A DNA stretch of 60,450 nt, the filler included, from Hausera hauseri (taxonomy: Eukaryota): assembly GCA_046269625.1 (NCBI GenBank). It is 11 parts of 11 records of this genome, joined end to end, with 100 filler letters (N's around TTAATTAATTAA, not from the genome) between each part and the next. Parts side by side here need not be neighbours in the genome. Positions count along the whole stretch, not along the records: positions 9,312 to 14,338 come from JBJURY010356710.1; 10 more parts are not named here. One strand, given 5' to 3'. Positions 1,975 through 60,200 of the stretch are shown here, in pieces. A program made the translations under genes and the position numbers. The notes below the pieces were generated by a model. It saw only the letters and a list, made by a program, of their open reading frames with translations, had not been told where the DNA came from and did no database searches. How positions within the stretch are numbered: position 1 is the stretch's first letter; each line of letters starts with the position of its first letter.

Positions 1975-3233
1975 GAGGAAACCGAAGCTTCACCAATTTT
2001 CGATGCTACGATATTGGACCAAGTAATAAGGAATCCTGGGGTAGACTTAGACGAAGAAGATGATATTATAGAAGCTGTAATGATCATTGATCCCAATAAT
2101 ATAGTTGACGTAGACAAAACAACCACGACGATATTAAAAATAATTACCAGCAATATAACGGCGGAAAGAATAAAGGAAATTTTACCTCAATTGGTATTAT
2201 TAGCCCAAGATATCAGTCATGTGAAAGAGATAGCCAGAACGGTTTTAGCCAAAGCGGCTGAAGAAGAGAAAAGAAGAAATGAAGCTATCAGGGTAACGAT
2301 AAAAGAAGGAAATCAAGATATGAGGGTCATCCGGATGAACGAAATCGATGACATACAAACATTAAGAGAAAGGATATAGGAGCTGGAACCATTTTATCAA
2401 GGCAGTCCTTATGGATTAAGTTATTGCGGCAGAACAGTAAATGGTTACGATAGACTACTGAAAATTGGATGCAGAAGTGAGAAGTATAATCCGATAAATA
2501 TAACTGAAATACATCCAGAGGTAAGAGCGCAAGCAACAGTGGAAGATATCATAAGAGAACTAGAACGGTTGGAAGTAGAAAACCCCATGGGTGGTACACA
2601 AGACGTCACGGTCCAAACGGAAGCCAAGAGAAGAGGCAGGCCAAGAGGAACGAAAATAAGCGATATTCGCAACAGAAAACATAAAAATGAAGAAATAGTA
2701 AGACGTTTATTACTAGCAGGAACAGATGGTACTCCCGAATCGGTGGACATAGATCTATTATTAAGAACGTTATTGGCTAAGATGCATACATCATTTGCCT
2801 CGTTTGACATGCAAGCAATAATCCCAGATGAAGTATTCAATACATTAAGTAATAGTATGCTCCGAATAAACAGACAATTTTATGAGAATCTGGAGGAAGA
2901 AAGGATAAACGAGCTACACGAATTAGATATTCTGGAAAAAATGCTTGCTTCAGGATTTACACGAGAAAAAGCTCAAACGGCTATATTTTATTTATTATAT
3001 AAGATAATAGTAATTAACCATCAGACCCAAATTTAGAGAAGATCGAACTAAATATCAAGACAGTCGTGAAGATTTTGAAAGATACTTTGGGAAATTGGGC
3101 TCAATGTAGATGTGGCTGGCTGAACAATTTGATGACTAATGTGACGATGACAGAAGAACGAGAAAGAATAATAAATAGACCAGTTAGAACCCAACCAACC
3201 ACTACCAGATCGGGTATAACAGGCACGTCAATA
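1975..3233 (+). pseudogene. Unknown ORF2 between gag and env, with AT-hook-like KRRGRPRG
   Basis: Same frame as gag to 3036 with one stop (2377), then an apparent shift into the env frame (LEKIELNIKTVVKILK...). No protease, RT, RNase H or integrase motif seen. Confidence 0.55.
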
Positions 3234-4931
3234 ATGGAGATTATACAAATTTTATTGATAACATCATTGCTGATGCCAAAAGCCGTAGGTATAGTGGCGT
3301 ATAATTGCTCTAAACCCAGTGAGGGACAAAAGTATTCTCTAGATGACTTAGAAAAATGCATAAATGCTGATCCAGAACAGTTAATAACTACTAGTGGCCT
3401 TACATATTGGGTGTACCAAGAGTCCGAATTCATAAAAACAAAAATTAGGGAATGTTACGTGAAAAGATCGTTCTTTCTATTTTATTGTAACTACTATTCG
3501 GGAAATTCGGCCATAATTGAGCCTACAACGCCTTTTGAGCCCATAATAATATCTCGAGCAGAGTGTCAAGATGCTTTTAAGATTGGCATTATAACTATAC
3601 AAAATGCACACATACCGGCAGTGAGGAATAGAATAAAGTACAAAGGGATTTTCAGAGCGAGAAGGATAGACAAAACAATGGAAGGAACCTGTAAAGGAGT
3701 GGATTATGATGTCGGAGGTACCATTGCGCCTAGAACAGTAGCCATAGAAGATTATCAGGTACAACTGGAAGAATATGAAGGATTATTTGATTCTCAGACA
3801 AAGTTAATGACAACTTTGAGTGACTGCGAATACGACAATGGTGAATGTGATACAGGAGAGTCAAAAATGACATGGGAGACTCTAGCAAGTAAATGCCAAT
3901 TGACACTGTTAAAGGAAGGCAAGTTTAACAAGACAGTGGGAAAGACAGGGGAAAAAGAAACGGCGATGTATAAAGAAGGAACAAAGGAAGTCAAGATGAC
4001 AGAAGTAGCTACAATTGTATACTCAGGAAATCCCGAAGGAATGATGAGATTTAAAGTTACGGGCGTGACAAATAAGTGTGGAGAAGAAATATCCAAGACC
4101 AATTATAAAGGTATCTTCATATCGAGAAAAGAAATACCCGGAGCGAAAACGAAAATAGAAAAAAAGGATATCAAGTTGACCCAATATTTCGATAACAAGA
4201 TCGATTTTCTGATTAATTACATAAGAAAGGAAATTAGGGATTTATATCGGGAGATTATAATGAACGAATGCAAGCTGAACTATGAAATAATGCGTAATAA
4301 AATGGCATTGGTGATAACAAACCCGGATATGATAACGCCAATACTACCCTTCGGTGATGGAGTTATTGGAAGAGTGATGGGAGAGGTTTTGATAACAATA
4401 GAATGTAAGAAGGTAAAAGTAGCAATCAGACCCACGAAAGAATGCACAATGGACCTACCTGTCGTTTACCAATCAGAAGCACGGTATGTTACGCCAGTGA
4501 CAAGAATACTTCTCGATGTTAACATAAAACCCACTTCACTCTACAATTGTACTTTTAATATGTCACCAATGTTCAAAATTGATAATGATAAATGGATAAG
4601 GATGCCGAAAAGAGAACCAGTGTCGAAACCGGAGACATTAAGTTTGATTAACTTACAAAGGAATCATAAGTTCGAGTCATTAACAGGAATATCACAGGAA
4701 GGAATTTATACCCAACAAAATTTGGAAGATTATAGACGGATGTTGTTATTTCCACAGCAAGGACAGCCAGTAATAACCGAATTAACGCGGAGAGTAATGT
4801 GGGACGGTGAAGGGTCCCCACAGTGGAAAAACCTGATGGGCAAGGACTATCAAAAGAAAGTAACACAAAACGTGATGGGAAAAATGTGGGGAAGGTTCCT
4901 ATATTACGGAATACAGCTTTTGGGTTTCTAG
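3234..4931 (+). CDS. env: Chuvirus (Jingchuvirales)-like envelope glycoprotein; TM region disrupted
   Basis: Signal peptide MEIIQILLITSLLMPKAVG followed by IVAYNC. Cys-rich ectodomain. Block YFDNKIDFL..LY....ECKL..GEVL...C..V.V.IR...C..DLPV....YVTPVTRIL resembles chuviral G/EVE proteins. Open to 4931. Confidence 0.8.
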   Translation: MEIIQILLITSLLMPKAVGIVAYNCSKPSEGQKYSLDDLEKCINADPEQLITTSGLTYWVYQESEFIKTKIRECYVKRSFFLFYCNYYSGNSAIIEPTTPFEPIIISRAECQDAFKIGIITIQNAHIPAVRNRIKYKGIFRARRIDKTMEGTCKGVDYDVGGTIAPRTVAIEDYQVQLEEYEGLFDSQTKLMTTLSDCEYDNGECDTGESKMTWETLASKCQLTLLKEGKFNKTVGKTGEKETAMYKEGTKEVKMTEVATIVYSGNPEGMMRFKVTGVTNKCGEEISKTNYKGIFISRKEIPGAKTKIEKKDIKLTQYFDNKIDFLINYIRKEIRDLYREIIMNECKLNYEIMRNKMALVITNPDMITPILPFGDGVIGRVMGEVLITIECKKVKVAIRPTKECTMDLPVVYQSEARYVTPVTRILLDVNIKPTSLYNCTFNMSPMFKIDNDKWIRMPKREPVSKPETLSLINLQRNHKFESLTGISQEGIYTQQNLEDYRRMLLFPQQGQPVITELTRRVMWDGEGSPQWKNLMGKDYQKKVTQNVMGKMWGRFLYYGIQLLGF

Positions 4932-6019: not shown

Positions 6020-6237
6020 AGTGTTAGTGTAGTCAGTTTACTTGGTTTTCAGCTTGTTATGAGTGGAGACACTATCGCCCTTCCAGGCAGCTCTACTTTC
6101 CCAAGTTGTACTCCGGTACCCATTTCAGGCAGACTGAACCGAATATCGATCGTCTGGAAACAAACACAATTCTCTGGGAATTGAACCCCCATAACTGGTT
6201 CGGCTGGTGATTGCACAAACCACTATGCCACCGCGGC
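6020..6237 (-). mobile_element. tRNA-derived SINE with Nin/Deu-like core
   Basis: Minus strand: A-box GGTGGCATAGTGGTT (6232-6218), B-box GGGTTCAATTCCC (6188-6176), then GAAATGGGTACC (6126-6115), resembling the conserved Nin/Deu SINE motif. Confidence 0.7.
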
Positions 6238-7021
6238 ACACTACGCGAGTTCCGGCTCACGGTCTCAATAATTCTATTTTGCCTTTCCTTTGAGAATGCA
6301 GCTTTGTTTCTTCACCGTTTTCTCGCACAACTCCATTATTCTAAGGCAGCTTATTCGGTCTTATCTTCGCCACTGAATCTCTCAGACAAAACGACGACAC
6401 AACTGACATGTGATTGTGTAGGGTGAGTTCAGGGTGTCCAGTGGGGAAGATATCCATTACAAATGCCTCGTAGATCCAGCGAAATGACCAGAGAATGTAA
6501 GGTGCTATTACAAGTTGATTGCCGTTAGCTAGGGATAGAAATCAACAATCTTATTGTCTTATCGGAAATCTGTGTGGACAACCAAAGGATAAGCAAGTAA
6601 GCCCTACATAATGCCCGCTGAAGTAATGTTCACCATACCCTTAGTACAAAGTAATAAACAGAAGTGCAAAGCAAGTGCCGCTCATACGTTCATTTCCTCC
6701 AGAAATGCCAATTATACGAGACAATCAGACCTGTGATAAAGTTCATCCCAAGCTCACCGCCAATGTAAGAGAAACTGATTTCGATATGTGAGTGAAAGAC
6801 GAAGAAGAAGCCAAGACAATGTGAGGTCTCTTGTACTTTCGCAAAGCTACAGTCTCTGCAACTACCGGAGAAATGGTTCGTCGCTATGGAGGCGATTATA
6901 AACTAATACAAATATACATTCCGTTTCCAAAAGAATAAGTTTATCGTTGCTTGATTTAATTTAGTTTATTGACCATCATTAATGTGAATCGAATCCATTC
7001 CATTAAGTAATAGGACCATCT

Positions 7022-9311: not shown

Positions 9312-12300
9312 AAATATTCTGTAGGATGTATCGGGCACTGCAATTTGTCTACAGGATGATGTTAGATAAGAAAATTCTTCTTTCCCTGGATATGGTATTA
9401 AAGTTGTTCTAAACGATTTCTATTGTTCTGGGACGTCTAATTTTCTCATTATGTGGTTGAACATCTTGGTCAGTGCTCCAAGGGTTGGGTCCAACGATTT
9501 TCATTGTGCATATCTGATTGAGTCTTCTCCTGGGCTGCTTTCTTTCGAGCTCTTGAATGCTCTTTTTACTTCTATTGTGATTTGTCAGTTGGTAAAGTTA
9601 TCCTGCGTTTCTGTTACTTTGAGGAAAGCATAAGATGGGTCAGGTGTTTCAGGCTCAACCTGTGTATAGTGCTTGATGATTTCGTTTTTCGATGGCAGTG
9701 CAACTGCTACAGCTGGATTTATGATTCTTTGATAGGTTAGTTTTGGACTTTTTTGGTAAGCCATTCTGAGCTTCCATTCGTTTTCTTCCTTTTCTGTGTT
9801 TTGTCGTCAGATGTCGTATATTTTTTGTTTTATCCGGAAACATTTCTTTCTTTGCTCGTTCGGCTTCATTCAGCAAGTGCGTGGTTCCCATTCCAGGCTC
9901 ATCGAGGTATAACATGGCTCGCTCGATGAGTGGATGGGTTTTCTTTTCTGGTATAGGTGGTTGTGTTTTTTGATTTATATATTGCAGAACGAGATTTTTG
10001 GTGTCACTTCTCATGTCTTTAGGATTGCAAATCTTGAAACGGCAGACTTTTTGTTGCAGGTATTGTCTTGCATAGTTTATTATGTATACACCCGCGTCCG
10101 CCGAGTTTTCTTGAGTTGGGTAGGTGTTTACCTGTACCCTCTTGATTTTCAGGTCCCATGTGGGGTATGAGAAGTGGTAAAGCAACTCCGTGAGTTTGTC
10201 AGCAATTGTTTTGTGTTTTGTTGAAATGCTGATTGTTGCAGGGTGAAATATTAGAATTTATTCGCTTCTTTTTGTCTACAATAAATAGTAACCAGTGTCT
10301 GTTCTCCACGTGTATCGGTCACAGTGATATTGTCCAGTTATGAAGAGCTGAGAAAGGGAAGTCTATATAACGTGTTTTAAGGTCAGAGTTTAACAGGGCA
10401 TGGCTGAGAGTGGGTTAGTGAACATTATCTCCGGATTTCGAATCACGCAATAAAAGCGGAGGCACAACTCTATGACCCACTCCGATAGTCAATCACTATC
10501 CGCGTCTTTTTTCGTAACTGGTAGGTTTAAGTTGTATATATCCAGTGGGAAGTCAATTTTGAATGTGTGGTAGTCTATACAGTGTCTATTGATGTTGCCT
10601 ATCGGAACTTCTGTGTCGCATATTTTACATTCTATTTTGTTGTTCTGTTTAATTCTACAGTGTTTTTTAGTTTATAAGTGTTGTTAAATTTTAGGCTCAA
10701 ATTTATTGGTGTCTGTGTTGAATAGCGACTCAAATCCACATTCTGGGAGTTTGCATTGTATTTTTATTAGGTTGTTCGCACTATCCTTTACTATGTTGAA
10801 GGGAAATGTCGTCGGGTTGTGTTGTGCTTCGGCCCTTATTATGTCCTTATTGTTAGACGTTTGTGGAGTGTCCTTTTGCATTGTCTGCTTCCTGATTTCT
10901 TGGGCGCCTACTCGGAGGTAATGGGCTCCGTTTGTTAGTTCACACCTATAGCCGCACATATATGGGCCGCAGTCATCGTTGTTTTCTGGTGGTTGGTTGT
11001 CTTGGTTTTGTCATAGTCCCCTGTATTGTAAGTTTAGAATATTGAATATTGCCTTAAATGCCTCCATACTAAGGTTTATTAATTCGCTTACTGCTTTCTC
11101 CCTAACGAACTTCTTATATGGGTCTAATAGGTTTAATCAATTTTCCTCCATATTAATATAGATTAGGAGCCAGTGATGTTTATGCCATACAGACATGAAA
11201 ATATTTTGCTCTGTTTTAGATAGTACCGCATCTGTGGGGGCCATATATAGATGGGCCGTGGCTGCAGTTCCATCTGGAATAGGAAGGAGAAGTCATCCCA
11301 TGATATGAATAGGGAGTCGCCATTCATCATGACCTACTTACCCCAATGGTTAATCTGTTCTGTGGTAAACCACAGTTTTTCCTTAAGGGAGTTAATCTGG
11401 TCTTGTTTGGTTTGGGGATCATTTTTGTTATTACTTTATCAAATAGCTGAGTGAAGTTAATTGAACCTATAGAGTTTGTGGTCGCCTGAGTTAAGCTAAT
11501 GGTAGAGTGCTCATTGGCACTATTGGTCGATAATGGTATCGTATTCTTTACCAATTGTGCGAAAGTTTTATTAATTATATGTGAATTTTCTGAATTTTCG
11601 CATTTAGAATTTTTAGGGGTAGATGTCGCTATGTATTTAGGTGTCTTATTTAGAGCTGGCTCTGTGAGTTCTTGGCCTGTTTTAAAGATATTGTTTTGGG
11701 GTGGTGTTAGGATTATTAGATCAAACGGATCACTCGGTCTACTCAGCTCATACTGCTCTACATTGGCCTCTGTTTGTCTCGTTATTTTATTGTCCTTGAT
11801 CGATTTCTTCATCTTGCCATTGATTCTGCTTTTATTATATTGTTCAGTTCCTGAGGTATTAGATGATTCATTCTGTGACATGTTGTTTTTCTGTTGCTTT
11901 TCTTTGACGATATCAATGGACTTCTTGTCTCTGAGCGCATCGTATTTCTTAGTTATTGATGAGTTAAATAGGTTCTTTTGTTTGGGTAGGTTCTCTTGAC
12001 CCTGTCTAGTGTTGGTCTTCCCTGCGAGTTTTTCTGATATATATTTGCTATTTGATTCTTCCTGTCGGTTAGGACTTTTCTTTGGTAGTAGTTTTCTTGG
12101 TTTGGATATGGCTTGGTTTGACACACTGATTTTGTCTCGTGTTTGGTGTAGTTTCGTCCAGTTTCTTCGTCGACTGCGTCTGTTGTTCTCCTGTTGCCAG
12201 ATGGTGTCCTCCGGTCTTGTTTTGTTTCTGGAGAAGCTCTCCATTATTGGCAGATACAAGCCAAGTGAGGGATTGAGTTGAGCCTGATATAGCGCCGTCT

Positions 12301-12485
12301 GGTTTGGGATGCCAAATTGATTGAAGTTATTTGGTACATCCTGGGGTACCAGAAGTGGGGTATAATTTGGGAGTAGCCGCCTCTAGTCAAGGCTGATGTA
12401 ACCCTAGTGATATGTTGGTTCCTACAGTATTTTTTTTACAAAGTGTACGTACAGTAAAAGTATTCTGGTTTTTAAAGTGCCCATA
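9312..12485 (-). mobile_element. NeSL/Utopia-like (R2 superfamily) non-LTR retrotransposon, 5' part: N-terminal region, two Ulp1/C48 protease domains, start of RT
   Basis: Ulp1 motifs KHHWLLIY..D..NNDDCGPY (about 11180-10955) and PIHVENRHWLLFIVD..QENSADAGVY (about 10318-10085). RT start KSSPGED..FRTTLIP..R.IAV.DTSYRIF (about 9540-9315). Many stops. Confidence 0.8.
12109..12468. repeat. ~360-bp repeat (element 5' region), copy 1; copy 2 at 13375-13734
   Basis: High-identity direct match from TGGCTTGGTTTGACACACTG to AAGTATTCTGGT. Confidence 0.9.
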
Positions 12486-12564
12486 ATACTTGCACCGCTA
12501 CCGCCGAGATGTGAATGCATGAGCGAGCTTTGGGTATCTCTTGCTTCGCGGAATTCTCTGAGCT

Positions 12565-12669
12565 GGGAAGGAGTATTTACTGAAACCGAAGTTTCGGGCA
12601 TTTCCATGCCGTTACCGGCGTAGCGCACGGTATCAAAACCTCGACTCAAGGCAGTGTTGTCTCCTTCCC
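12565..12669 (-). ncRNA. Predicted multi-branched RNA structure in the 5' UTR of the non-LTR element
   Basis: Closing helix GGGAAGGAG/CTCCTTCCC encloses hairpins CCTTG/CGAGG, TACCG.GCG/CGC.CGGTA, GGCAT-GGAA-ATGCC and GAAAC-TTCG-GTTTC. Confidence 0.55.
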
Positions 12670-12719
12670 CTGATTTTTCTCGTCGGTCGCATCCTTTGGC
12701 GATATCTAAGACAATATAA

Positions 12720-13734
12720 CAATGTATAAAAGTAGGAAAATCACAAACCGCACAGCTCGGAGAGCTGTGCAACTTAATTCTGTCCGATACCGTCGAGTTT
12801 TAAAGTGACATCCTGGCAACGCCCCTTTCCGGAATCCTCCCGCGGTCCGCAATAGGCGAGTTTCGGACTTGCACAGAGTTCATCCGGTTGTACGGAGTGG
12901 GTCTGTATCTGCTGCGTCCGGTATCTCTACCATTCTTCTTTATAAGTGCCGTGCAATTGGTGAAGAAAGTTTGTAGTACCTGCATGCTTGGATTGCTACA
13001 GAAGTCTTTGAGAAGAACTGTGGTGCGATTGTATGGCAATACTCGGATGGCTTTATTGAGTATGTGGAACAATCGGCATATTATGTTAGAGTTTTGAATC
13101 GGACTGGCCGGATTTTTGCTTCTCCCTGATGTGTCTTAGCCGGCTCATTACGTTCTCGGAGTTTTTGATGAGTTCTGTTTTATATTCTTTTTTTAGTCGG
13201 TCCCTGGGGCATGCAATCCAAGAGCATGTGGATTCCTTAATGAACAGTGCCATGTCCACAGCCATTCCGTATGCAACCTTTAGGTAGTGTGTTTTGGTGC
13301 TTTCGTTGTGAGTGATTCCCTTGAATCTGTTTGTGTGCCTACAGTCCTGGTAGTTTTTGCGTTGAAGGTATGTGTGGCTTGGTTTGACACACTGATTTTG
13401 TCTCGTGTTAGGTGTAGTTTCGTCCAGCTTCTTCGTCGACTACGTCTGTTGTTCGCCTGTTGTCAGATGGTGTCCTCCGGTCTTCTTTTGTTTCTGGAGA
13501 AGCTCTCCATTATTGTCAGATATGAGCCAAATGAGGGATTGAGTTGAGCCTGATATAGCGCCGTCTGGTCTGGGATGCCAAATTGATTGAAGTTATTTGG
13601 TACATCCTGGGGTAGCAGAAGTGGGGTATAATTTGGGTGTAGCCGCCTCCAGTCAAGGCTGATGTAACCCTAGTGATATGTTGGTTCCTAAAGTATTTTT
13701 TTACAAAGCGTACGTACAGTATAAGTATTCTGGT
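12720..13734 (-). mobile_element. Internally deleted copy of the same non-LTR element (5' region joined to C-terminal Zn-knuckle region and 3' UTR)
   Basis: Repeat copy 2 followed by C-x4-C-G..HMLLDC (about 13280-13215) and a perfect hairpin GCACAGCTC-nnn-GAGCTGTGC (12750-12770). Confidence 0.5.
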
Positions 13735-14338
13735 GAGCATGTTCGTTTGGGTATCGGAGGACCTGTTCCTTTAGGGCTATAAGAGTGAAGTTGTTTTCGG
13801 CACATGCGTTAGGGGCTCCTATGGCTTTCTGTAATGCGTGTAGTAGTTCCCCTGAAGATATCCAGTCAAGTACCCTCTGGTTTAATATTTTGATGAAGAT
13901 TCTATAAGACGTGTCCAAGACTGCAATGGGCCGCAAGGAGGAGACAAGATATGAGTATTCTTCTTTGCCAGGTTTGGGAATAAGTGTGGTTCTAAAAGAT
14001 TTCCATTGAGTAGGAATGTCCTGATTGGTCATTATGTGGTTGAAGAAAGTTTCTAAGGCTGTAAAGTTAGGGTCTAGGGCTTTCCAGTGGCTGTACTCAA
14101 TATCGTTTTCCCCGGGACTACTTTTCTTGCAATTATTCAATGTTTTTTCTATTTCATTAGAGGTAATTGGGAGGTAGGTGAAAGAATCCTCGATACAAGG
14201 TACTTTAAGGAAGGAGTAGTTCGGGTCCGTTATTTTTGGTGTTTGTTGGGTGTAATGTTCCTCGACAGCTTTCCTTGTTGGGAGAGACACAGCCATAGCC
14301 GGGTTGGTAATTCTGTTATATACAATTTTAGGTGCCCG
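13735..14338 (-). mobile_element. Non-LTR reverse transcriptase N-terminal fragment (same family as 9312-9650)
   Basis: KKSSPGENDIEY..W, IPTQWKSFRTTLIPKPG, LRPIAVLDTSYRIF.KIL..R, QKAI...CAENNF. Confidence 0.85.
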
Positions 14339-17880: not shown

Positions 17881-18255
17881 TTGACTAATGAATCGCAAAA
17901 TTGCCGGTTTAAAAGTGTTCTGAAACGGGATATTTTATGTCACGTTTCAATAAAAACATCTGTTGTTTTCTGATTTACTTTCAATATCGTCACAAAGATA
18001 ATCCAAACGAGAACCGTGATGGGATCATTTAATAGAAATTTTAGGTTATTTGCAATTATTGTTATGTTTCGTTTTTTACTAATAAGATATTTTTTCTACA
18101 TGTTGGTTTACAAGGTGAACACGCAAAAGTCAAGAAGGAGACGATTTTTACTGTAAATCTGGGGTTTTTATAACAAATAGTCAAATAGATGCAAAATATA
18201 ATCTGAAAAAATTGTTTGCCAAGAAAGCTAAAATAAAGCATTTGGGGCCTTTAAA

Positions 18256-19135
18256 TGTAACAGTATTTTGCACTTGTTCAAATCTTTCCCATTGTTTAGA
18301 AATTTTGAATTTTTACAATGTGAGGAGAACTGAAATTCTAAATTTAAATTAGAAACATTTTTAAATTTTAAAAATTCGATCATGAATTTAAATTAAAAAT
18401 GTAACATTAAAAGTATAATTTAATTTTGGAATTTTTGAAAAATTTGTTTCAAAATGAGTATTTTGAGATACAATAACATTTTCAACAATTGGTGTTAACT
18501 TTTCAATGAGTAACTACAAACGATCCAATTCCGCTTCTGCGGACATACCAGGAGGCGTGAATTTTCCAAACCTACCCAAGTTCGGCGACGAGGTGGACGG
18601 CGTGGATGCGTCCGCGGCCAACATGGCGACTTACGCCATAATGGGCATTTTCGCAAATCAAATGGTGCCCAACAAATTCAGGAAAGGCGACGACGTGGAG
18701 AAGTTCATTAAAGGATGTGAAACATTCTTTAAATATATGGACACCCCGGCGGCGAAGCGGGAAATCATGATTGAATGCCTCTTGGAGGAAGAAGCACAAG
18801 AAAGATACAAGGCAGTAGATGAGAAAATAATTTCATATCAAAACCGACTACGGAAGGCTTTCGCCCGATCCTCAACGATGTGCGAAGATCCGAAAGAGGC
18901 GCTCGAGTACAGAATAAATAGAGCGGAACCGGAGGCTTACTTCAAGTCAATAGAAATCGATGAGATCATCCGAAACCTATGGGAAAACGACATTATCAAG
19001 CCATGTAACTCAACATTTAATACACCAATGATATGCGTAATGGAAGAAAGACAAGAAAAATGTCAGAATATGCCTGGACTTCAGACAGCTAAATCTTAAA
19101 ACGGAACGGCAAGCCTTCCTCATGCCTAACAAAAT
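18256..19135 (+). mobile_element. Gypsy element (family K): 5' LTR 18256-18487, gag start, deletion fusing gag to RT
   Basis: TGTAACA...TTCAACA then TGG. gag MSNYKRS..PNKFRKGDDVEKFIKGCE joined to IDEIIRNLWENDIIKPCNS.FNTPMICV. Homologous to 57213-59110. Confidence 0.85.
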
Positions 19136-21605: not shown

Positions 21606-23920
21606 ACGGTGGCTGGATGATATGAATCATGAAAACAAAGTTTTTCGACGTCCGTTTGTGGAGCTATGTGAATTATTCTTAACAGTATATGTCAGAATTA
21701 TGTAAACTGATTTCAAACGAAAAAGGGGAACCAATCGTCGGACGAAGAAGCTATAATATGGTTTAAAACGACGTTTATGAGGAAGGTGAACCCTATCGAT
21801 GAAGTAATCGAATTGGCCGACATGTGTCAGAAAGAAAGAGAAGACTTTTTGACATTAGAAATCAGGGGGCGCCATGCAATGGACAAAGTTTTTGAGTTGA
21901 ACGAAGGAGAATTTGTTCAAGAAGTTCTGAGAAAACGGATAAGCTTAAAAGTGCAAAGAGAACAGTTTGTTTTCAAACCCAAAAATGATGATGGAAGAGA
22001 TGAGGAAACAGGTAAAAATTTAGGAAGATAGCCAAACTGTAGAACAGTAAAGAGAAGTGGCTCCAGTGAAGAAATCCTTCGGGGTGTAGTAAAGGCTCCC
22101 AATAGAAATTTCGAAAAAACAACATAGGTGAAACCCAAAGAATATGAGAGAAAACCGTTCATACGTAACAGTGTAACAGAATATCCAAAAAATAAAGGTT
22201 TGAAAAAAGATCGATGAACAACAACATTACTCAGGTTAAGAAACCACCTTTCCGTGTGATCACAGAGAAGAGAGGACAGGCTACAACGCACTCTGCCTAT
22301 CATGATGCCAGTAAGTTCTACTGCTGCGAAAAATTGTTACAATCGCCGAAAGCTAAAGTGCTATCTAAGGATGATTGTTATTGCCGTTAAAAACATGGAC
22401 ACATTAGAAGAAAGTGCCCTTTAAACAACATATGTTTAATATGTGGAAAAGTGGACACGGAATTAGAAACTGTTTCAAATTACGACAGGTAAATCCGATG
22501 TATGTGGAAGAAATGTATGAAGACCATGGGGTGAAATTGCACACTACGAAGACGACATGTAGAAAACTTGAAATACCAGAAACTCTGCTGTAAGCATTAC
22601 GTCAGTGGAGTTGGCGTAAACAATTTACAAAATCGAGATGCAGCAATGGTAGTGGGGAAAGACGGACGGTGATGGAGTAAAGTAAAGTTGAACAAGTGTA
22701 GAATAGAAATTTTGTTGGATAGTGTAGCAGTACTCTGCCAACAAATAGGAAATGAAGAAAAGGTAGTAGAGTATGCATCTAAAACACTCTCATCTTTTGA
22801 GAGTTACAAGAAAGGAACTGTTGGCATTACAGGAGTTTATGTTGCATTTTAAACAATATGTGTATGGTAAGCACTTCATGTCTAGAACTCATCATAAAGC
22901 GTTGTAATATATAAAAACCGCCACAAAACCAGTAACACCGCAATTCCAGACGTGGCTTAAAAACATGGCAGATTTTAATTTTACACTATACTATAGGAAG
23001 GGTGAACAGCAGGAAAATGCAGATGGATTATCGCGATTTTATGAAGATATATGTGCTCAGTGCCAAACAAGACGCGCTAATCCGAAAAAGGGCGCGTGTA
23101 AAGCATATTGATTTATTTTTGGTCATGTCAACCTTTCAATGGATAAAAGACGAGTAAGAAAAATGTACAGAAATACAACAAGTAAAACGTCGATTAGACG
23201 GCTCAATAGTGCAAAACGTACAAATTACGAAGGGAATTCTCAGTATAATCGATAAATTGGAAATGACGGACGGTTTCCTGGTATATAAAGATCTGAACCA
23301 CAGATTACCAGTTGTTCCAAAAATATGCGTAAAGATTTCATCCGGAAGATACATGTGGATTTATGCCATCTGGTTATGAGGAAGACAAAACGTATATTCA
23401 GCATCACTTCGCAGGCCCGGGTTTATCAAAAGAAGTAAATTTCATTGGAAATTGTGAAGAATGCTTATGTCCGAAAATCTCAAGAAAAAAGACAAAAGAA
23501 AAGTTCATTCCTATTAATGGTGATAATTTTCTGGACCAATTGGTAATGTATGTTGAGTAAATTGGAGAAAAAATAGAATGTATTTGTATATTTTGATTAT
23601 TATTGATCAACTTTCGAAATTGGTGAGTTTAACAAAAATACGGACGCCGAAGTGAAATGGACTCACAGAATTGGAAAGCCGAAGTGAATCTTGATTGATA
23701 ACGGAAGCAAATTTGGAGTTTTGCAAAGAATAGGGAATTAAACAAATATTCAGCAGTCCGATTCAACATCAATCTAACGGTTTGGCAGAAAGGGTCATCC
23801 GGACTGTTTGGGATATGCAGGTAACAAGTGCAGCAGGAACGTTGCGTACAGCATGCTGGAAATCACTACCGAAATTGGAATTTTCGATAAATGCCACGAG
23901 TAGTTGTAAAATGACTGGAT
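21606..23920 (+). mobile_element. Highly decayed Gypsy element (gag remnants, RNase H, integrase)
   Basis: VVEYASKTL, KELLAL, YRKGEQQENADGLSR, SP.QHQSNGLAERVIRTV. Confidence 0.8.
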
Positions 23921-24323
23921 GGGGCCGGCCCTTCATTTTTTTAAAAAATTTTCATTCGTTCGCCACCGTTTACTCATGAAATTTTTTTAAATTTTGAAAA
24001 ACCGACCCCATTCAGTCATTTTACAACTACTGTCAACACTTCAATTATATGTGAATGGGAAACTCGATTGAAGAAATTTAAAGTGTATATTAATTGTTAA
24101 CATAATTTGAATATTATAAAAATGGCGTTTCAGTTAAATGAAAGCAAACAAAAAAATCAAAATAAAATTGATGAAATTTAAATTATATATTAATTATTAA
24201 GATAATTTAAATTTTATAAAAAGNNNNNNNNNNNNNNNNNNNNNNNNNNNNNNNNNNNNNNNNNNNNTTAATTAATTAANNNNNNNNNNNNNNNNNNNNN
24301 NNNNNNNNNNNNNNNNNNNNNNN

Positions 24324-53339: not shown

Positions 53340-54285
53340 AGGAATTATTCAAGGATTTCAAAGTGACAACCGATGCGGCATTTAACTTGAACAGGGCGAA
53401 TTTTAATTACCGTGTCCAGGAGAAATTTAAACTGAAGAAAGCGGAAACTACAGATTTATCAGAAAATCAAGAGCTGGAATTATTCTCTAATGCTTGCCAG
53501 GAAACCGTTGAGGAGTACGTTTCTGCGGTCGCCCCATGTTTCTCTCAGGAAATCTGGGATGATTTCAATTCATCTTTCTATACCACTTCCTGGCTGCTTC
53601 TGACTAGCGATTTAAATGTTCCGAATGCCGCCTACAAACGGCAAGAAACTTATTTACGTTCACAGATTCGACAATGGGAAAACGATCAGGGCATGAATTC
53701 ATTCAAACGACAGAAAAAAGTGGATCGGTTTAATACTTTGACTGAGCGATTGAAAGAGGAACAGAAACGAAGTGAACAGTACGTGAAAATAGTGGATTAT
53801 TGGCTGAATGCGGTGAAATCGAAATGGTTGTGAAAACGCGAGATGAATCAGAAAAAGCCATTGTGATGACCCGCTTCATTGAGTTGTGCATGTCTCCACG
53901 TGTCCGTTTTTTATCGAATAATGCCTTGTTCGTTGACCTCCAAATTACACCGAATAAAGTAGTTATCATTTTCTGCGCTAATTTGTTTGGATAGAATTTT
54001 CAACGACATTACTTTGATGATCACTGCATGTAGCGAAAACGAAGCCAGACGATATGGTCGATTCTTAGATTCAATGTTAACACTGACAATAAAATGGCAC
54101 TCGTCAAGAGAAGTATTCAACGATGAATGCATTACCCACCCGGGATAGCAATAACAAAGCCGATCAGTTAACGTACGAAAACTACCGACACGTACTTCAC
54201 AAATGGCATTATCGCGTTACGAAATCAATCGTTGCCTGCTTTGAATCGGAAAATTACGTTCAAATTCGAAATTTGTTAATTGTGT
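53340..54285 (+). pseudogene. THOC2: THO complex subunit 2 fragment
   Basis: WDD....[46 protein letters not shown]....C.E..NY..IRN.LIV. Frameshifts. Confidence 0.88.
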
Positions 54286-54367: not shown

Positions 54368-54445
54368 ATCTTGTTTTACCATTTTGAAGAATTTGTTTTT
54401 CAGTTTTAATTTTCAGATTTTAATATCAAATCGCTTACAAATGAG
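54368..54445. repeat. ~77-bp direct repeat, second copy at 55609-55685 (scaffold end)
   Basis: ATCTTGTTTTACCATTTTGAAG...CGCTTACAAATGA occurs twice. Confidence 0.85.
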
Positions 54446-54899
54446 TGGATTTAAAAGTTCTTTATGCGTTGATATTTTAACTATTGATCGGCTTTTGTGC
54501 GCTTCATCCATTTATTACACGTTGCTTTGCACAATGATGGAAATTTCGGATTATCTATTCGGCTATCCAATTCAGTTTGACCAGCTATCTTCGGTACCCA
54601 AATTTGAAACCGAAGAGAGAATTCTACTTGCGGCAGATTTATTTGGAACTATGTCATGTGTATTTGATTTGTTTTTTATGGAAAAGCGAACAAAACACGG
54701 TTTTGACTGTGCTTGTACAATTAACAATAGAAACAATAACGAGGCTCTCATTTTGTCTTTCTGTAAATCGTACTTGTTCGTTTCTGTCCCGAAACATTTC
54801 CTTATTTATGAACCTCCATACATTTTCCTCTGTTCTTTCCTTAATTTTTTCATTACCTTGTAAATTTCTTTGAATATTTTGGGAGTCTTTGGGTTTGTT

Positions 54900-55600: not shown

Positions 55601-57212
55601 AGATTTGTATCTTGTTTTACCATTTTGAAGAATTTGTTTTTCAGTTTTAATTTTCAGATTTTAATATCAAATCGCTTACAAATGANNNNNNNNNNNNNNN
55701 NNNNNNNNNNNNNNNNNNNNNNNNNNNNNTTAATTAATTAANNNNNNNNNNNNNNNNNNNNNNNNNNNNNNNNNNNNNNNNNNNNTATAAAAGTGACATA
55801 GACAATTAAAAAAAGGTTTACCGGATCAACTTTTGACAGCATATAAAGAAGATCTTTGAAATCAGTAAGTTTGGCAATAAAGCGTGTTTCAACAATCGTT
55901 TTAACAAATGTGACCAACTTAACAGATACTCGATCACGGTAGTATGGAATAGTCTGACAACTGGTACTGCTTATTTCAATTAATTGTGTCACACCAGACG
56001 GACTTTTCACGATACGTTCCAATCTATCCAATACCGGATGTTCAGATCCATTGATACCGGTGACGATTTTTCGAACCGATCCTCGAAAATTTTGACAAAT
56101 ATCAAAATCATCACAGATTTTCGGACAGGCCGGAAGATATACAAAACTCTTTCGCTGTCTTATCGATTCCAAAACATTCTTTCTCCATCTTTTAAAGTAT
56201 ATGCTTTTCTTCGAAAGAATAACAATCTCCTCTTCGCGCTGTTTCTTTTGCACATATAATTCCATATTCTTGAGTAACGACGCTGATTAGTAGTAATGTT
56301 ATACGTGAAATATACTTGAAAGAAGTCGTCAAGAACTTCAGAGGTAATGTTGGTACATAATTCACCGGATACAATAGTCTTACATTCTGTAATGTGATCA
56401 TGAACAATACGAACTACGCACTAAAAACGATTAAGTATGCAGGAAAAGAAATTTGGAATTTTTACATGTCGCAAAACATCTGCAAAAATCTTATTTTTAA
56501 TTTCTCTACACTGCTGGTCTTTAATTTGTTCAACTTTAACGATCTTTTCAACTTGAGATACTCCCTCCGATTCAATGTCATTTATTAAATCCTCCAATAC
56601 ATCACATGACATCTCTTCAATATCTTCTTCTGTGGGCTGATACTAAAGTTGGAAATGAAAATAAAATGTTTTATACAAAAATTTTTATATTTTAGATCGT
56701 TCTTCGATATAAGCAATCCTCTAAAAAGTTAATAATATAAATTTGGTGAGGTGACATTTTCGATGATTTTGAAATTATCTCGTATAAAATATGCAGAATA
56801 ATATGATAATATAGAAGCGTATGCATTGGTAGACAAAATAATGGAATGGAAATATTCAAAAACTGTTCGCTTGGAACTTGTTCAATTTCCTCCCATATGT
56901 AAAGTATCATAATGGAGTTTTATTAAATGTTCGGCCATTTTTTGACTAATTTCCGACTAATATCGCTTTATGTGCCGTTTGTGTAACTTGTACAAATGTG
57001 TGCGTGTTTAATTGGTCAAATCTGTAATATGTAGTATTATTAAAACCAGCATTCAATAATTTTGTTGTGAGAATTTTGATTCCGAGTAAAACTTCATTAA
57101 ATCCACATGGGCTTTTATATGAAATAGGCAGAAACATACAAATATAATGCTGATTAATAATACAAAAAACTTTTCCTAACAAAGTTAGAATAATACAATT
57201 AGAGTTTTGAAA

Positions 57213-60200
57213 TGTGACATTTTTTCGCACTTGTTCAAGTCTTTCCTCGCCACGTTTAGGAATTTTGAACTTTAACAATGTGAGGATATAATCGAGACAT
57301 GAAATTCTAAAATTAAATTAGTATTTGGAGAAACAATAAAATTTTCAACAATTGGTCTCACTTTGCAATGAGTAATTACAAACGATCAAATTCTGCTTTA
57401 GCGAACATACCAGGGGGGGCGGGGATTTTCCAACCCATAATAGACATTTTCACGAACCAGTTGTTCCCAAACAAATTCAGGAAAGGCGACGACGTGGAGA
57501 GGTTCATTAAGGGATGTGAAAATTCTTTAAATATATGAACACTCCGCGTCGAAGCGAAAAATCATGGTTGAATGCCTCTTGGAGGAAGAAGCACTAGAAA
57601 GATACGAGGCAGTAGATGGAAGGATAACAGGATATCAAAACCAACTACGGAAGGCTTTCGCCCGATCCTCAACGCTGGGCCAAGATCTGAAAGAGGCGCT
57701 CGAGTACAGAATGAATGGAGCGAAACCGGAGGCTTACTTCGAGGCAATCGCGAAACTTCTGGATTAAGTCATGAAGCACAATCTTTCACGCGAGGCTCTG
57801 AAAAAGGAACTATTGTTCCAATGTTGTAACAATAGAGAGATGAGAAGAGAGATATGCTTCAGTGACAAACGAGACGCGGAAACAATAAAGGAGAAAATAC
57901 GGAAGATACATGAGGTAAAGATTAAGAAGTCAACACGGTTAAGGAGTATCCGGGAGTCGGTATAAGAAGCTACCAGGAAGTGGCAGCACAAAATATCAGG
58001 AAACCCTTTCTTAGAATCAAGACGACGCCAACTAGACCGCCAAATGGTGGATTAAAGTGTTGGACATGCCAGAAGGAGAGACATATGAGCAGAAATTGCA
58101 CCACACGAAGATCGATTAAATGTTTTGGATGCAGAAAAGAAGGACACGTACGCGGGCAGTGTCCAGAAAGAAAGCCAGTAAGATGCTACGGATGTGGTCA
58201 GCTAGGGCACATCAGACGAAATTGTACAAACCTTAGCTGTGCAAGATGTCACCATAGGGAACATACCGAAAAGGAATGCTACACCAGATTGGAGGGGGAA
58301 AGGAACCGGGATGGAATATATACAACGTCAAAAGAAGGTACAAGGATAATCTGAACAGCAGACGGGGGGGAAGTCGCAAATGTAGAAGAAGAAGAAACAG
58401 AATCGGAACAGGAGTCATTTGCCCCAAAAGGCAGCTCCTCGATAGAAGTGGAGAAAATCGGAGCACTACAATAGATGCAGTCCACACTACGATGTGCGAA
58501 CGATAGCCCCTTAGATAGCTTGGGCACACTGACAACAGACGTAGAAATCAAGGGTCTAAGGAGACGTGTGACATTCCTGGTAATGTCGGAATTACGGCCA
58601 GAAATAATAGGTGGTATGGAACTGCAAAAGGCATTTAAAATAGAACTGGAGTGGAAACGCACGGAAACGGAAACATTACAGCAAGATATATGCAATCTGG
58701 AAGCCAAGTTCGGCTGTAAGGTGACTAACCAAGAATGAGTCAAACAGGGCGAAGGAAGCTCTTCAGGTGAGTAACAACAAAGAGCTACTCAACATTATAC
58801 AGAAATACCCAGATGTATTCATGGCCGACATGTGGGACATAGGGTGCACATCTCTTATAAAACACCAAATAGACACGACAGGAGCGCCAATTAGTATCAA
58901 ACCTCACAGGCAACCAGTAAACCTAGAAAAAATATCGACGAGACCATCTGAAACCTATGGGAAAACGACATTATCAAGCCATGTAACTCTGCATGGAATA
59001 CAACAATGATATGCGTATGGGAAAAAGACAAGAACGATGTCAGAATATGCCTTGACTTTAGACAGCTGAATCTTATAACGGAACGGCAGGTCTTCTCCAT
59101 GCCTAACGTGGTAGAGATATTGGACATGTTATACGGGACCAAATTTTTCACGTCAATCGACCTAGGGAATACATACTACCAAGTCGAGCTAGAGGAAGAC
59201 CCCAAACTGAAGACGGCGTTTTCAATGAAATTGGGGCAGTTCTGTTTTAACAGGATACCATTCGGTATAGCAGCAGCTCCGGGCATCTTCCAAAAAATAA
59301 TGAATCAAGTACTAGGGGACATTTAATAAACAGTGGTATACCTAGATGACATACTAATCTTTTCTGAGATTCTAGAAGAGCATTATAGGATACTAGAAAA
59401 GGTATTTCAGCGGATAAGGGAAGCAGGTCTCAGAGTAAGCTCAGAAAAATGTCATACCCTAAAGAAAGAAATAAAATTTTAGGGCACATGGCGAATGACA
59501 AGGGAATACAGACAGACCCATCAAAACTGGGAGCAATTAAGTCCTTTGAGAAACCAAAATGTGTCAAGAATTTGAGAAGCTTCTTAGGGATCTTCAACTA
59601 TTACAGAAGATTTATCCAGGGTTACGCAGCAAAGGCCAAGACTTTGGAGCAACTATGCGGTTTGAATAACAAAAAACTAATACGGACCGAGCAATGTAAC
59701 GAGGCTTTCAAGTCAATGAAAGAGCCTTAGCCATACCCCCAATACTAGGTTTTCCTGATTTCAACAGAGAATTTATCCTCCATACGGACGCAAGCTTCGA
59801 CACAATTGGAGCGGTACTGCCACAGAAGGATACTTTGGGACGCGAGAGAGTGATTGCATACGGATCATACGCAATGAACAACCATGAAAAAGGTTAGTGT
59901 ATAACTCGAAAGGATCTACTGGCCATGTATTATTTCTGTCAACATTTCAAGCATCACCCATACGGGAAACGGTTCACATTGAGAACGGACCACAAGGCAA
60001 TAACGTTCATGGTAAAGACAAAAAAACGATAACGGCCCAATTTCAGACGTGGATCAATTACCTAGCCAGTCTAGACATCAACCTGGAGTACAGAAAAGGC
60101 ACAGATCACGCGAACGCAGATATGCTATCTCGCACGAGTTGCGAAACATGCAGAGAATGTCTACAACAACATAACGACGCTAAAGTGCAGAAAAGCAAGA

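Follow-up and report, generated by a model that had tools for sequence, protein, structure and literature searches.

The window analyzed here, a stretch of 60,450 nucleotides, strings together short contigs of eukaryotic DNA with N spacers between them, and the structured RNA that is our subject sits on the piece at 9312–14338. Read along its minus strand, this piece carries a reverse transcriptase (RT) fragment (14338–13735), a short broken open reading frame (ORF; 13734–13086), approximately 600 non-coding bases and a decayed element (12484–9312). The RT fragment is from a second, more distant copy and matches P0001 and P0152 at 56–58%. The short unit that follows has a zinc-finger-like N-terminal part and a C-terminal part without a known family, and the first 360 bases of its ORF are 95% like 12469–12109. 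No protein relatives were found for the N-terminal frame or for the end of the short ORF. A candidate reading of 13375–13086 as an endonuclease end was rejected.

The decayed downstream element begins with a zinc-finger-like part and continues through a long frame of low complexity into two Ulp1-like protease domains and the first part of an RT. Its closest complete protein, P0152, is 75–82% identical to the downstream copy and has Peptidase_C48 and RVT_1 domains that both score above the Pfam cut-off. At its C-terminus, P0152 also has what we take, from a motif spotted by eye, to be a zinc knuckle and a restriction-like endonuclease; Pfam matches to these are sub-threshold only, and that part falls off the window's contig. 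As read through P0152, the element has its Ulp1 protease N-terminal to the RT, an arrangement described as the mark of NeSL and of one Utopia family (PMC4640811). The provisional designation NeSL-type used here rests on this architecture. The preliminary description had placed the host in the R2 superfamily (restriction-like endonuclease) and the RNA on its sense strand, and both assignments are supported. No U2 or spliced-leader target was seen for the host element. Judging by which elements occur here, the organism is probably an animal. Protein-based locus scans with a wide alignment returned 58 and 74 loci; L001 and L002 are the only close ones among them, and both stop short of the 5′ end. 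A narrow alignment returned no loci in metagenomes, and a scan of viral contigs also gave none.

Other elements were observed at the relative loci and in the window. Utopia-like RT elements lie beside U2 snRNA copies at L059, L060 and L070, as host DNA in a bacterial genome bin. A bacterial genome bin also holds a Tx1-like element (L089, 6986–12525, and L097), which in both loci occupies one and the same site within a tandem array of U5 snRNA (436-bp unit). Its 1178-aa frame opens with what is presumably an AP-endonuclease-like motif, and its reading as a restriction-endonuclease type was rejected. Tx1 families are already recorded as having a U5 target (PMC4494074). Elsewhere in the window we identified a 621-aa ORF (3066–4931, plus strand), an endogenous viral or env-like gene that matches the Pfam family of Monjiviricetes fusion glycoproteins (E 1e-72), and an 85-nt tRNA-His (6167–6251, minus strand; ARAGORN). 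The window also has two related copies of an LTR-type retroelement (18207–19130 and 57164–59107; 75–91% alike), the second with a zinc knuckle, and an intronless, broken THOC2-like stretch (53363–54280, plus strand) followed by a SYS1-like frame (54384–54863), which are probably processed pseudogenes.

The host frame is interrupted by an in-frame TGA followed by CTA (10491–10489, minus strand). The same tryptophan position of Ulp1, opening the second protease domain, is a TGA in L001 (168–170, followed by CTT) and L002 (762–764, followed by CTA). It is the only stop in the L001 and L002 frames, which have 15 and 17 TGG codons, and the three TGA-bearing elements are approximately 33% alike. UGA-CUA is a readthrough context. 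Furthermore, all 11 of the close proteins listed start within the second protease domain. The lone TGA is likely a site of programmed readthrough that would join the zinc-finger ORF to the protease-RT-endonuclease. The sequence after the UGA has no conspicuous stimulatory structure (the best z, −2.6, occurs in one of the three elements), and no report of readthrough in such elements was found in the literature by title and abstract start. Its conservation suggests gag-pol-like readthrough in a non-LTR element.

The structured RNA domain (12669–12565, minus strand) lies in the non-coding stretch between the short ORF and the decayed element. Its 105 bases fold with an energy of −46.4 kcal/mol (z −6.49), and none of 200 shuffles was equally stable. 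The plus strand reaches −39.6, which bears out the minus strand chosen in the preliminary description. In an unbiased local scan of the whole window, 133 non-overlapping structures reached z ≤ −3; the domain (z −5.55) was the eighth of them by z and, of the structures with at least 80 nt, the third by energy. Five other scan structures that we folded are simple single or double hairpins. Fixed 105-nt windows at a step of 35 each missed part of the domain; the best of those overlapping it reached only z −1.67, and z −3 was passed by 4 of the 141 windows that lay elsewhere on the contig. The domain's signal thus depends on its borders. Two further structures in the window are a long AT-rich hairpin (23910–24019, z −10.4), probably the terminal inverted repeats of a small element, and a GC-rich double hairpin at a contig end (5006–5098, plus strand, z −8.4).

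The pieces of secondary structure first noticed by eye are all present on the minus strand. A 9-bp helix pairs 12669–12661 with 12573–12565, ACUG (12655–12652) is complementary to CAGU (12582–12579), and two 5-bp stems carry the tetraloops, GGAA at 12610–12597 and C-UUCG-G at 12595–12582. Drawn together as the four-hairpin fold of the preliminary description, they reach −39.3 kcal/mol, 7 kcal/mol above the optimum, with a probability of 4e-6 in the window copy. The optimum in this copy is instead a rod with a three-way junction, in which a 14-bp rod replaces the UUCG hairpin (probability 0.004 in the ensemble). The start codon said to lie about 80 nt downstream at 12485 is at 12484–12482, where it starts a frame of 20 codons, and a nearer in-frame ATG lies at 12520. 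The copy in the window has decayed and is possibly inactive.

Related copies point to a different fold for the family. These copies are contigs from two public runs (X1 and X2) of two studies, the run search having listed no RNA data set with the family, and the differences scored are those listed (40 rows, with 165 further rows beyond them). An X2 contig over 12525–12661 has 14 differences, five of them listed and four of these inside the domain; four more changes come from an 8-letter loose end at 12645, the low-depth form. The eight listed changes break the rod at three of eight positions and the fold of the preliminary description also at three, whereas the corrected fold is broken at none: three mismatches are repaired, three pairs are kept and two changes are unpaired. 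Two of the kept pairs are of the wobble type and hold on the sense strand only, and none of the differences listed is a two-sided compensatory change. As for the concern that family copies might disrupt the helices, the listed changes do so in the fold as drawn and not in the corrected one. With the low-depth letters, the optimum flips to the closing helix and four stacked hairpins (−52.2; UUCG hairpin probability 0.98), so the four hairpins first counted are probably right for living copies, with a first hairpin that differs from the one drawn. The rod remains the optimum with the four listed high-depth letters. Of the 2835 possible four-letter changes in the hairpin a stretch, 3 complete this hairpin with Watson-Crick pairs only, 24 do so when wobbles are allowed and 22 reach that energy; 98 create some perfect 8-bp helix anywhere in 321 bases. 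These fold tests mix letters from different copies and rest largely on one loose end. We infer the corrected fold with most weight on one low-depth copy. One low-depth contig skips or replaces 12575–12676.

As modeled, the corrected fold is cloverleaf-like, with four hairpins (a to d) inside a closing helix. The 5′ strand of the 9-bp closing helix is at 12669–12661, where a low-depth contig differs by small indels, and its 3′ strand is at 12573–12565, where the related copies' change at 12567 turns a G-C into a G-U pair. Hairpin a (12658–12635) has 8 bp (12658–12651 with 12642–12635) and an 8-nt loop; six of its eight pairs form in the window copy and all eight are Watson-Crick with the letters of the low-depth copy. 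Hairpin b (12634–12611) has 7 bp plus 3 bp and, in the window copy, a break at 12612 that is repaired in all covering contigs of both runs; its loop resembles the SL4 of twister-sister with an insertion. Hairpin c (12610–12597; 5 bp) has the GGAA loop of the GNRA type and a pair probability of 0.97. Hairpin d (12595–12582; 5 bp) carries the C-UUCG-G loop and competes with the rod in the window copy. An A-rich linker (12581–12574) is single-stranded, and the fold has no ACUG/CAGU helix, which is broken by the related copies' change at 12579. The strand after the closing helix (12564–12558) has two weak and mutually exclusive readings, as the pseudoknot partner of the hairpin a loop or as a twister-sister-like cleavage strand with a site at 12560/12559.

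The domain lies within a 275-nt block (12799–12525, minus strand) that is kept among family copies, as seen from joints at 12525 and 12799, loose ends and contig pieces; in contigs of both runs, the sequence differs on both sides of it. One X2 contig bridges 13146 to 12799 and another 12525 to 12433, and the deepest family form of this run has 675 other letters between 12525 and 12433, where the window has 91 nt. In X1 contigs, the zinc-finger region (12109/12111) runs into 13374/13376. Together, the bridges, which in the window concern 13734–13086 and 12799–12142, give a path that closes on itself at approximately 1.6 kb and comprises the RNA block, the 675 letters, the zinc-finger region, the end of the short ORF, about 100 letters and the RNA block again, with no RT. 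We infer from it a putative non-autonomous, RT-less unit that is tandem or circular, two forms that contigs alone cannot separate; a dispersed element with terminal repeats could also give such a path. The deepest form has 34 letters between the two sides of the joint at 13286, which suggests a short ORF longer than the window's. In a contig that spans the ATG region, the 146 letters on the upstream side of 12529 are unlike those of the window. The RNA and the ATG are thus not always together, and the tie between them that had been described is specific to some copies.

The order in the window is short ORF, terminal hairpin, RNA domain and next element. A 15-pair hairpin with a U-rich run (12776–12735, minus strand; loose ends at 12734 and 12737) is the probable 3′ end of the upstream unit. 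An X2 contig departs from the window sequence at 12737 into 255 unlike letters, and L001 ends in a hairpin and then a U/A-rich tract, approximately 290 bases past its stop. These observations favor the domain as the start of the next unit, and it is likely the first structure (5′ position) of that unit. The 3′ region of L002 (4133–4339) folds as three long hairpins, with a z of about −3 at the end.

None of 4227 Rfam families matched the domain at the gathering threshold, and the 5 and 2 matches at E ≤ 10 are at chance. This Rfam comparison, suggested in the preliminary description as a check, included snRNA, SL RNA, tRNA, SRP and RNase P and offers no family-model match to a known host non-coding RNA among the catalogued families, although an SL RNA outside the catalogue may have escaped it. 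No tRNA is present, and the sense strand has no Sm-site pattern. Single-sequence covariance models of two folds matched the window only, among 98/132 distant-relative loci (the 98-locus search left out short and duplicate loci). Patterns of the domain DNA gave no match in viral contigs and then 26 short exact matches, with a best model score of 15.4 bits (chance), and phage records gave no match to the domain. We conclude that a real, family-kept and uncatalogued RNA lies at the seam of NeSL-type head-to-tail units.

Descriptors of known ribozymes were also without matches, consistent with the earlier remark that no HDV or hammerhead consensus was obvious. The HDV descriptor required a 3-bp P3 closing an L3 with CC, P1′, P1.1 GG, J4/2 C and a P2 of at least 5 bp, with helix sizes from PMC3774820. 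Between 13090 and 12400 (minus strand, window copy only), it gave no strict and no relaxed match, the relaxed form being one that 31 of 40 shuffles match. J1/2 and P4 are reported to vary widely in R2 ribozymes (PMC3774820), so the domain could be an insert of a decayed HDV core. For the hammerhead, whose core combines CUGANGA and GAAA with three stems and NUH, neither strand has a CUGANGA and no type I fold has one core mismatch or fewer. The twister and hairpin ribozymes had no Rfam match, and their motifs are absent or isolated. By-eye readings of the domain as a hairpin ribozyme, twister, degenerate hammerhead, tRNA arm or U1-like RNA were all dropped.

By analogy with related elements, we tentatively propose that the domain is a self-cleaving boundary RNA at the unit start of an NeSL-type head-to-tail family. 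A read-through transcript would run from one head-to-tail unit into the next, and the domain would fold in it as a five-way junction of the closing helix, four stacked hairpins and the A-rich linker. With the strands that flank the closing helix, it would cut the transcript at or near the seam, and the unit-length RNA so released would be translated and also copied by the RT of the element. The RNA block would serve the approximately 1.6-kb RT-less unit as well, which would borrow the RT. There is precedent for such a role: in R2, R4 and Dong, an HDV-like ribozyme releases the element RNA from a co-transcript (PMC3774820), superfamily elements are described as using 5′ ribozymes to define unit-length RNA (PMC3774820, PMC6765202), and non-autonomous R2 SIDEs, like tandem retrozymes, rely on a ribozyme (PMC3414825, PMC7229834). 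The domain's position, strand and constraint suit a self-cleavage role, and the fixed link to an ATG expected of an IRES is missing here. Against this proposal stand the empty searches (none of 4227 Rfam families, no HDV or hammerhead match), the failure of twister-sister G5, C6 and P1, a pseudoknot at chance level and the rod, which still wins in the window copy and with the four listed high-depth letters. It is rather unlikely that the domain is a new self-cleaving class or a five-way relative of twister-sister that would also drive a coding, RT-less tandem or circular satellite of approximately 1.6 kb.

Nearly as likely as self-cleavage, the domain could be a non-catalytic 5′ module that binds protein at insertion or recruits ribosomes to an uncapped RNA, as in Bombyx R2. 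It is on the sense strand upstream of two different ORF starts, and its multi-hairpin fold has stable tetraloops and no catalytic core that we could find. The 5′ RNA of R2Bm, with five hairpins and a possible CUUCGG pseudoknot, positions protein for second-strand cleavage (PMC2346776), and R2 proteins are reported to be translated without an obligatory AUG (PMC13580325). However, the distance from the domain to the coding sequence is not kept (91 nt versus 675 other letters), and the R2Bm element is inside the coding region whereas the domain is outside it.

The domain is unlikely to be the last 3′ UTR structure of the upstream unit, to which the RT would bind in order to begin target-primed reverse transcription. 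This role would suit its distance from the stop codon (approximately 420 nt in the window, with a shorter distance in the deepest family form), the divergence of sequence directly after it, at 12525, and a cut at 12560/12559, which would leave the domain on the 3′ end of the monomer. Yet the terminal-looking hairpin and U-rich run precede the domain, and a contig leaves at 12737 into its 255 unlike letters. Furthermore, no similar domain is found in the 3′ regions of L001, which has no strong structured domain (best z −0.97), or L002, which ends 200 nt past the match.

An absence of current function, with a GC-richer stretch of an amplified repeat folding well by chance, is quite improbable. 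The domain has a GC content of 0.52 in a contig of 0.41, seven other loci in the window have a lower z, three folds compete and eight changes were scored. Chance would nonetheless have to account for the 200 less stable shuffles, the two canonical tetraloops, the pair-keeping changes that hold on one strand only and the completion of hairpin a (3 of 2835 changes, or 98 for any 8-bp helix). Very unlikely is a host RNA gene or satellite, either the site at which the element inserts or a sequence picked up through a template jump. In its favor, snRNA, spliced-leader and tRNA genes are targets of related clades (PMC4640811), U2 lies beside RT elements in L059, L060 and L070, and the sequence differs on both sides of the block; against it, the domain has no Rfam match even at E 10, no tRNA and no sense-strand Sm-site, and on either side of the block the bridging contigs continue into element sequence.

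At stake is the way in which elements of the NeSL/Utopia type set their 5′ ends and initiate translation. By title and abstract start, we found no ribozyme described in NeSL or Utopia elements, in a literature from which subscription journals are mostly absent. Within the literature searched, a self-cleaving boundary RNA would be the first ribozyme tied to elements of this type. An uncatalogued, family-conserved RNA at a unit seam is a cheap and direct test case. Cleavage would add a ribozyme type, and a new host in which one occurs; binding of the protein would give a template rule for a clade that is being mined for genome writing.

Among known ribozymes, the four-way twister-sister (PDB 5Y87, PMC5660989) is like the domain in the order of its arms, in the G-U-G-C … G-Y-C loop of the second arm, in the G59-C60-U61-C62-A63 after the closing helix and in A8 and G9, which are in register. 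The 3′ strand of L1 (G59-C60-U61-C62^A63-U64) matches at five of six positions (12563–12558), preceded by a single additional base, and SL4 (G29-U30-G31-C32-A33-A34-G35-U36-C37) fits at its two ends. In contrast, the 5′ strand of L1 (G5-C6-A7-A8-G9) matches at two of five positions (A8 and G9), with A for G5 and U for C6. According to PMC5660989, G5A nearly abolishes cleavage, and minimal twister-sister-like ribozymes also keep G and C at those positions (PMC11620745). Five other bases, which form a small hairpin, replace A33-A34, in a region that a bridging high-depth contig covers without a gap relative to the window, and four of five register positions of P1 below L1 are unpaired. The junction is five-way rather than four-way, and the helices are longer. 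With G5, C6, A33-A34 and P1 failing, the domain is not a member of twister-sister. A post hoc twister-sister-like descriptor found six places in 1,683,638 bases (the domain, three loci of one contaminated genome bin and two others) and matched 2 of 20000 seam shuffles.

Look-alikes of this kind are cheap, as these bases also allow a partial pistol to be drawn. The pistol features given in PMC6154101 are a 6-bp pseudoknot, purine 32, G33-C41, G40, G42 and a 2-nt P2–P3 junction. Like pistol, the domain has a hairpin loop able to pair just downstream of the second helix, an A-rich linker and a purine-G ahead of the pseudoknot strand. Unlike pistol, it would need a circular permutation, G33-C41 (C41 failing) and G42 are absent, the P2–P3 junction is not 2 nt, and its pseudoknot is at chance level (2226 of 20000).

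The HDV-like ribozymes of R2-superfamily elements share with the domain the element superfamily, the place at the unit start and the need to free a unit, whereas the window copy lacks the P3/L3/P1.1 core, so that the domain could at most be a peripheral insert of a core that is decayed or hidden. The 5′ protein-binding RNA of R2Bm is likewise a sense-strand RNA of several hairpins, close to the 5′ end of a retroelement with a restriction endonuclease, although that RNA lies in the coding region of a 28S-specific element of the Myb type. R2 SIDEs and animal non-LTR retrozymes resemble the approximately 1.6-kb unit in that non-autonomous units keep a terminal RNA and retrozymes are tandem; they are non-coding and use HDV or hammerhead ribozymes, while the unit here has an apparent short ORF. 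As in the NeSL/Utopia clade with an Ulp1 protease, the host element has the protease before the RT and, putatively, a C-terminal zinc knuckle and an endonuclease, and it differs from this clade in having two protease domains, with an in-frame UGA in the second.
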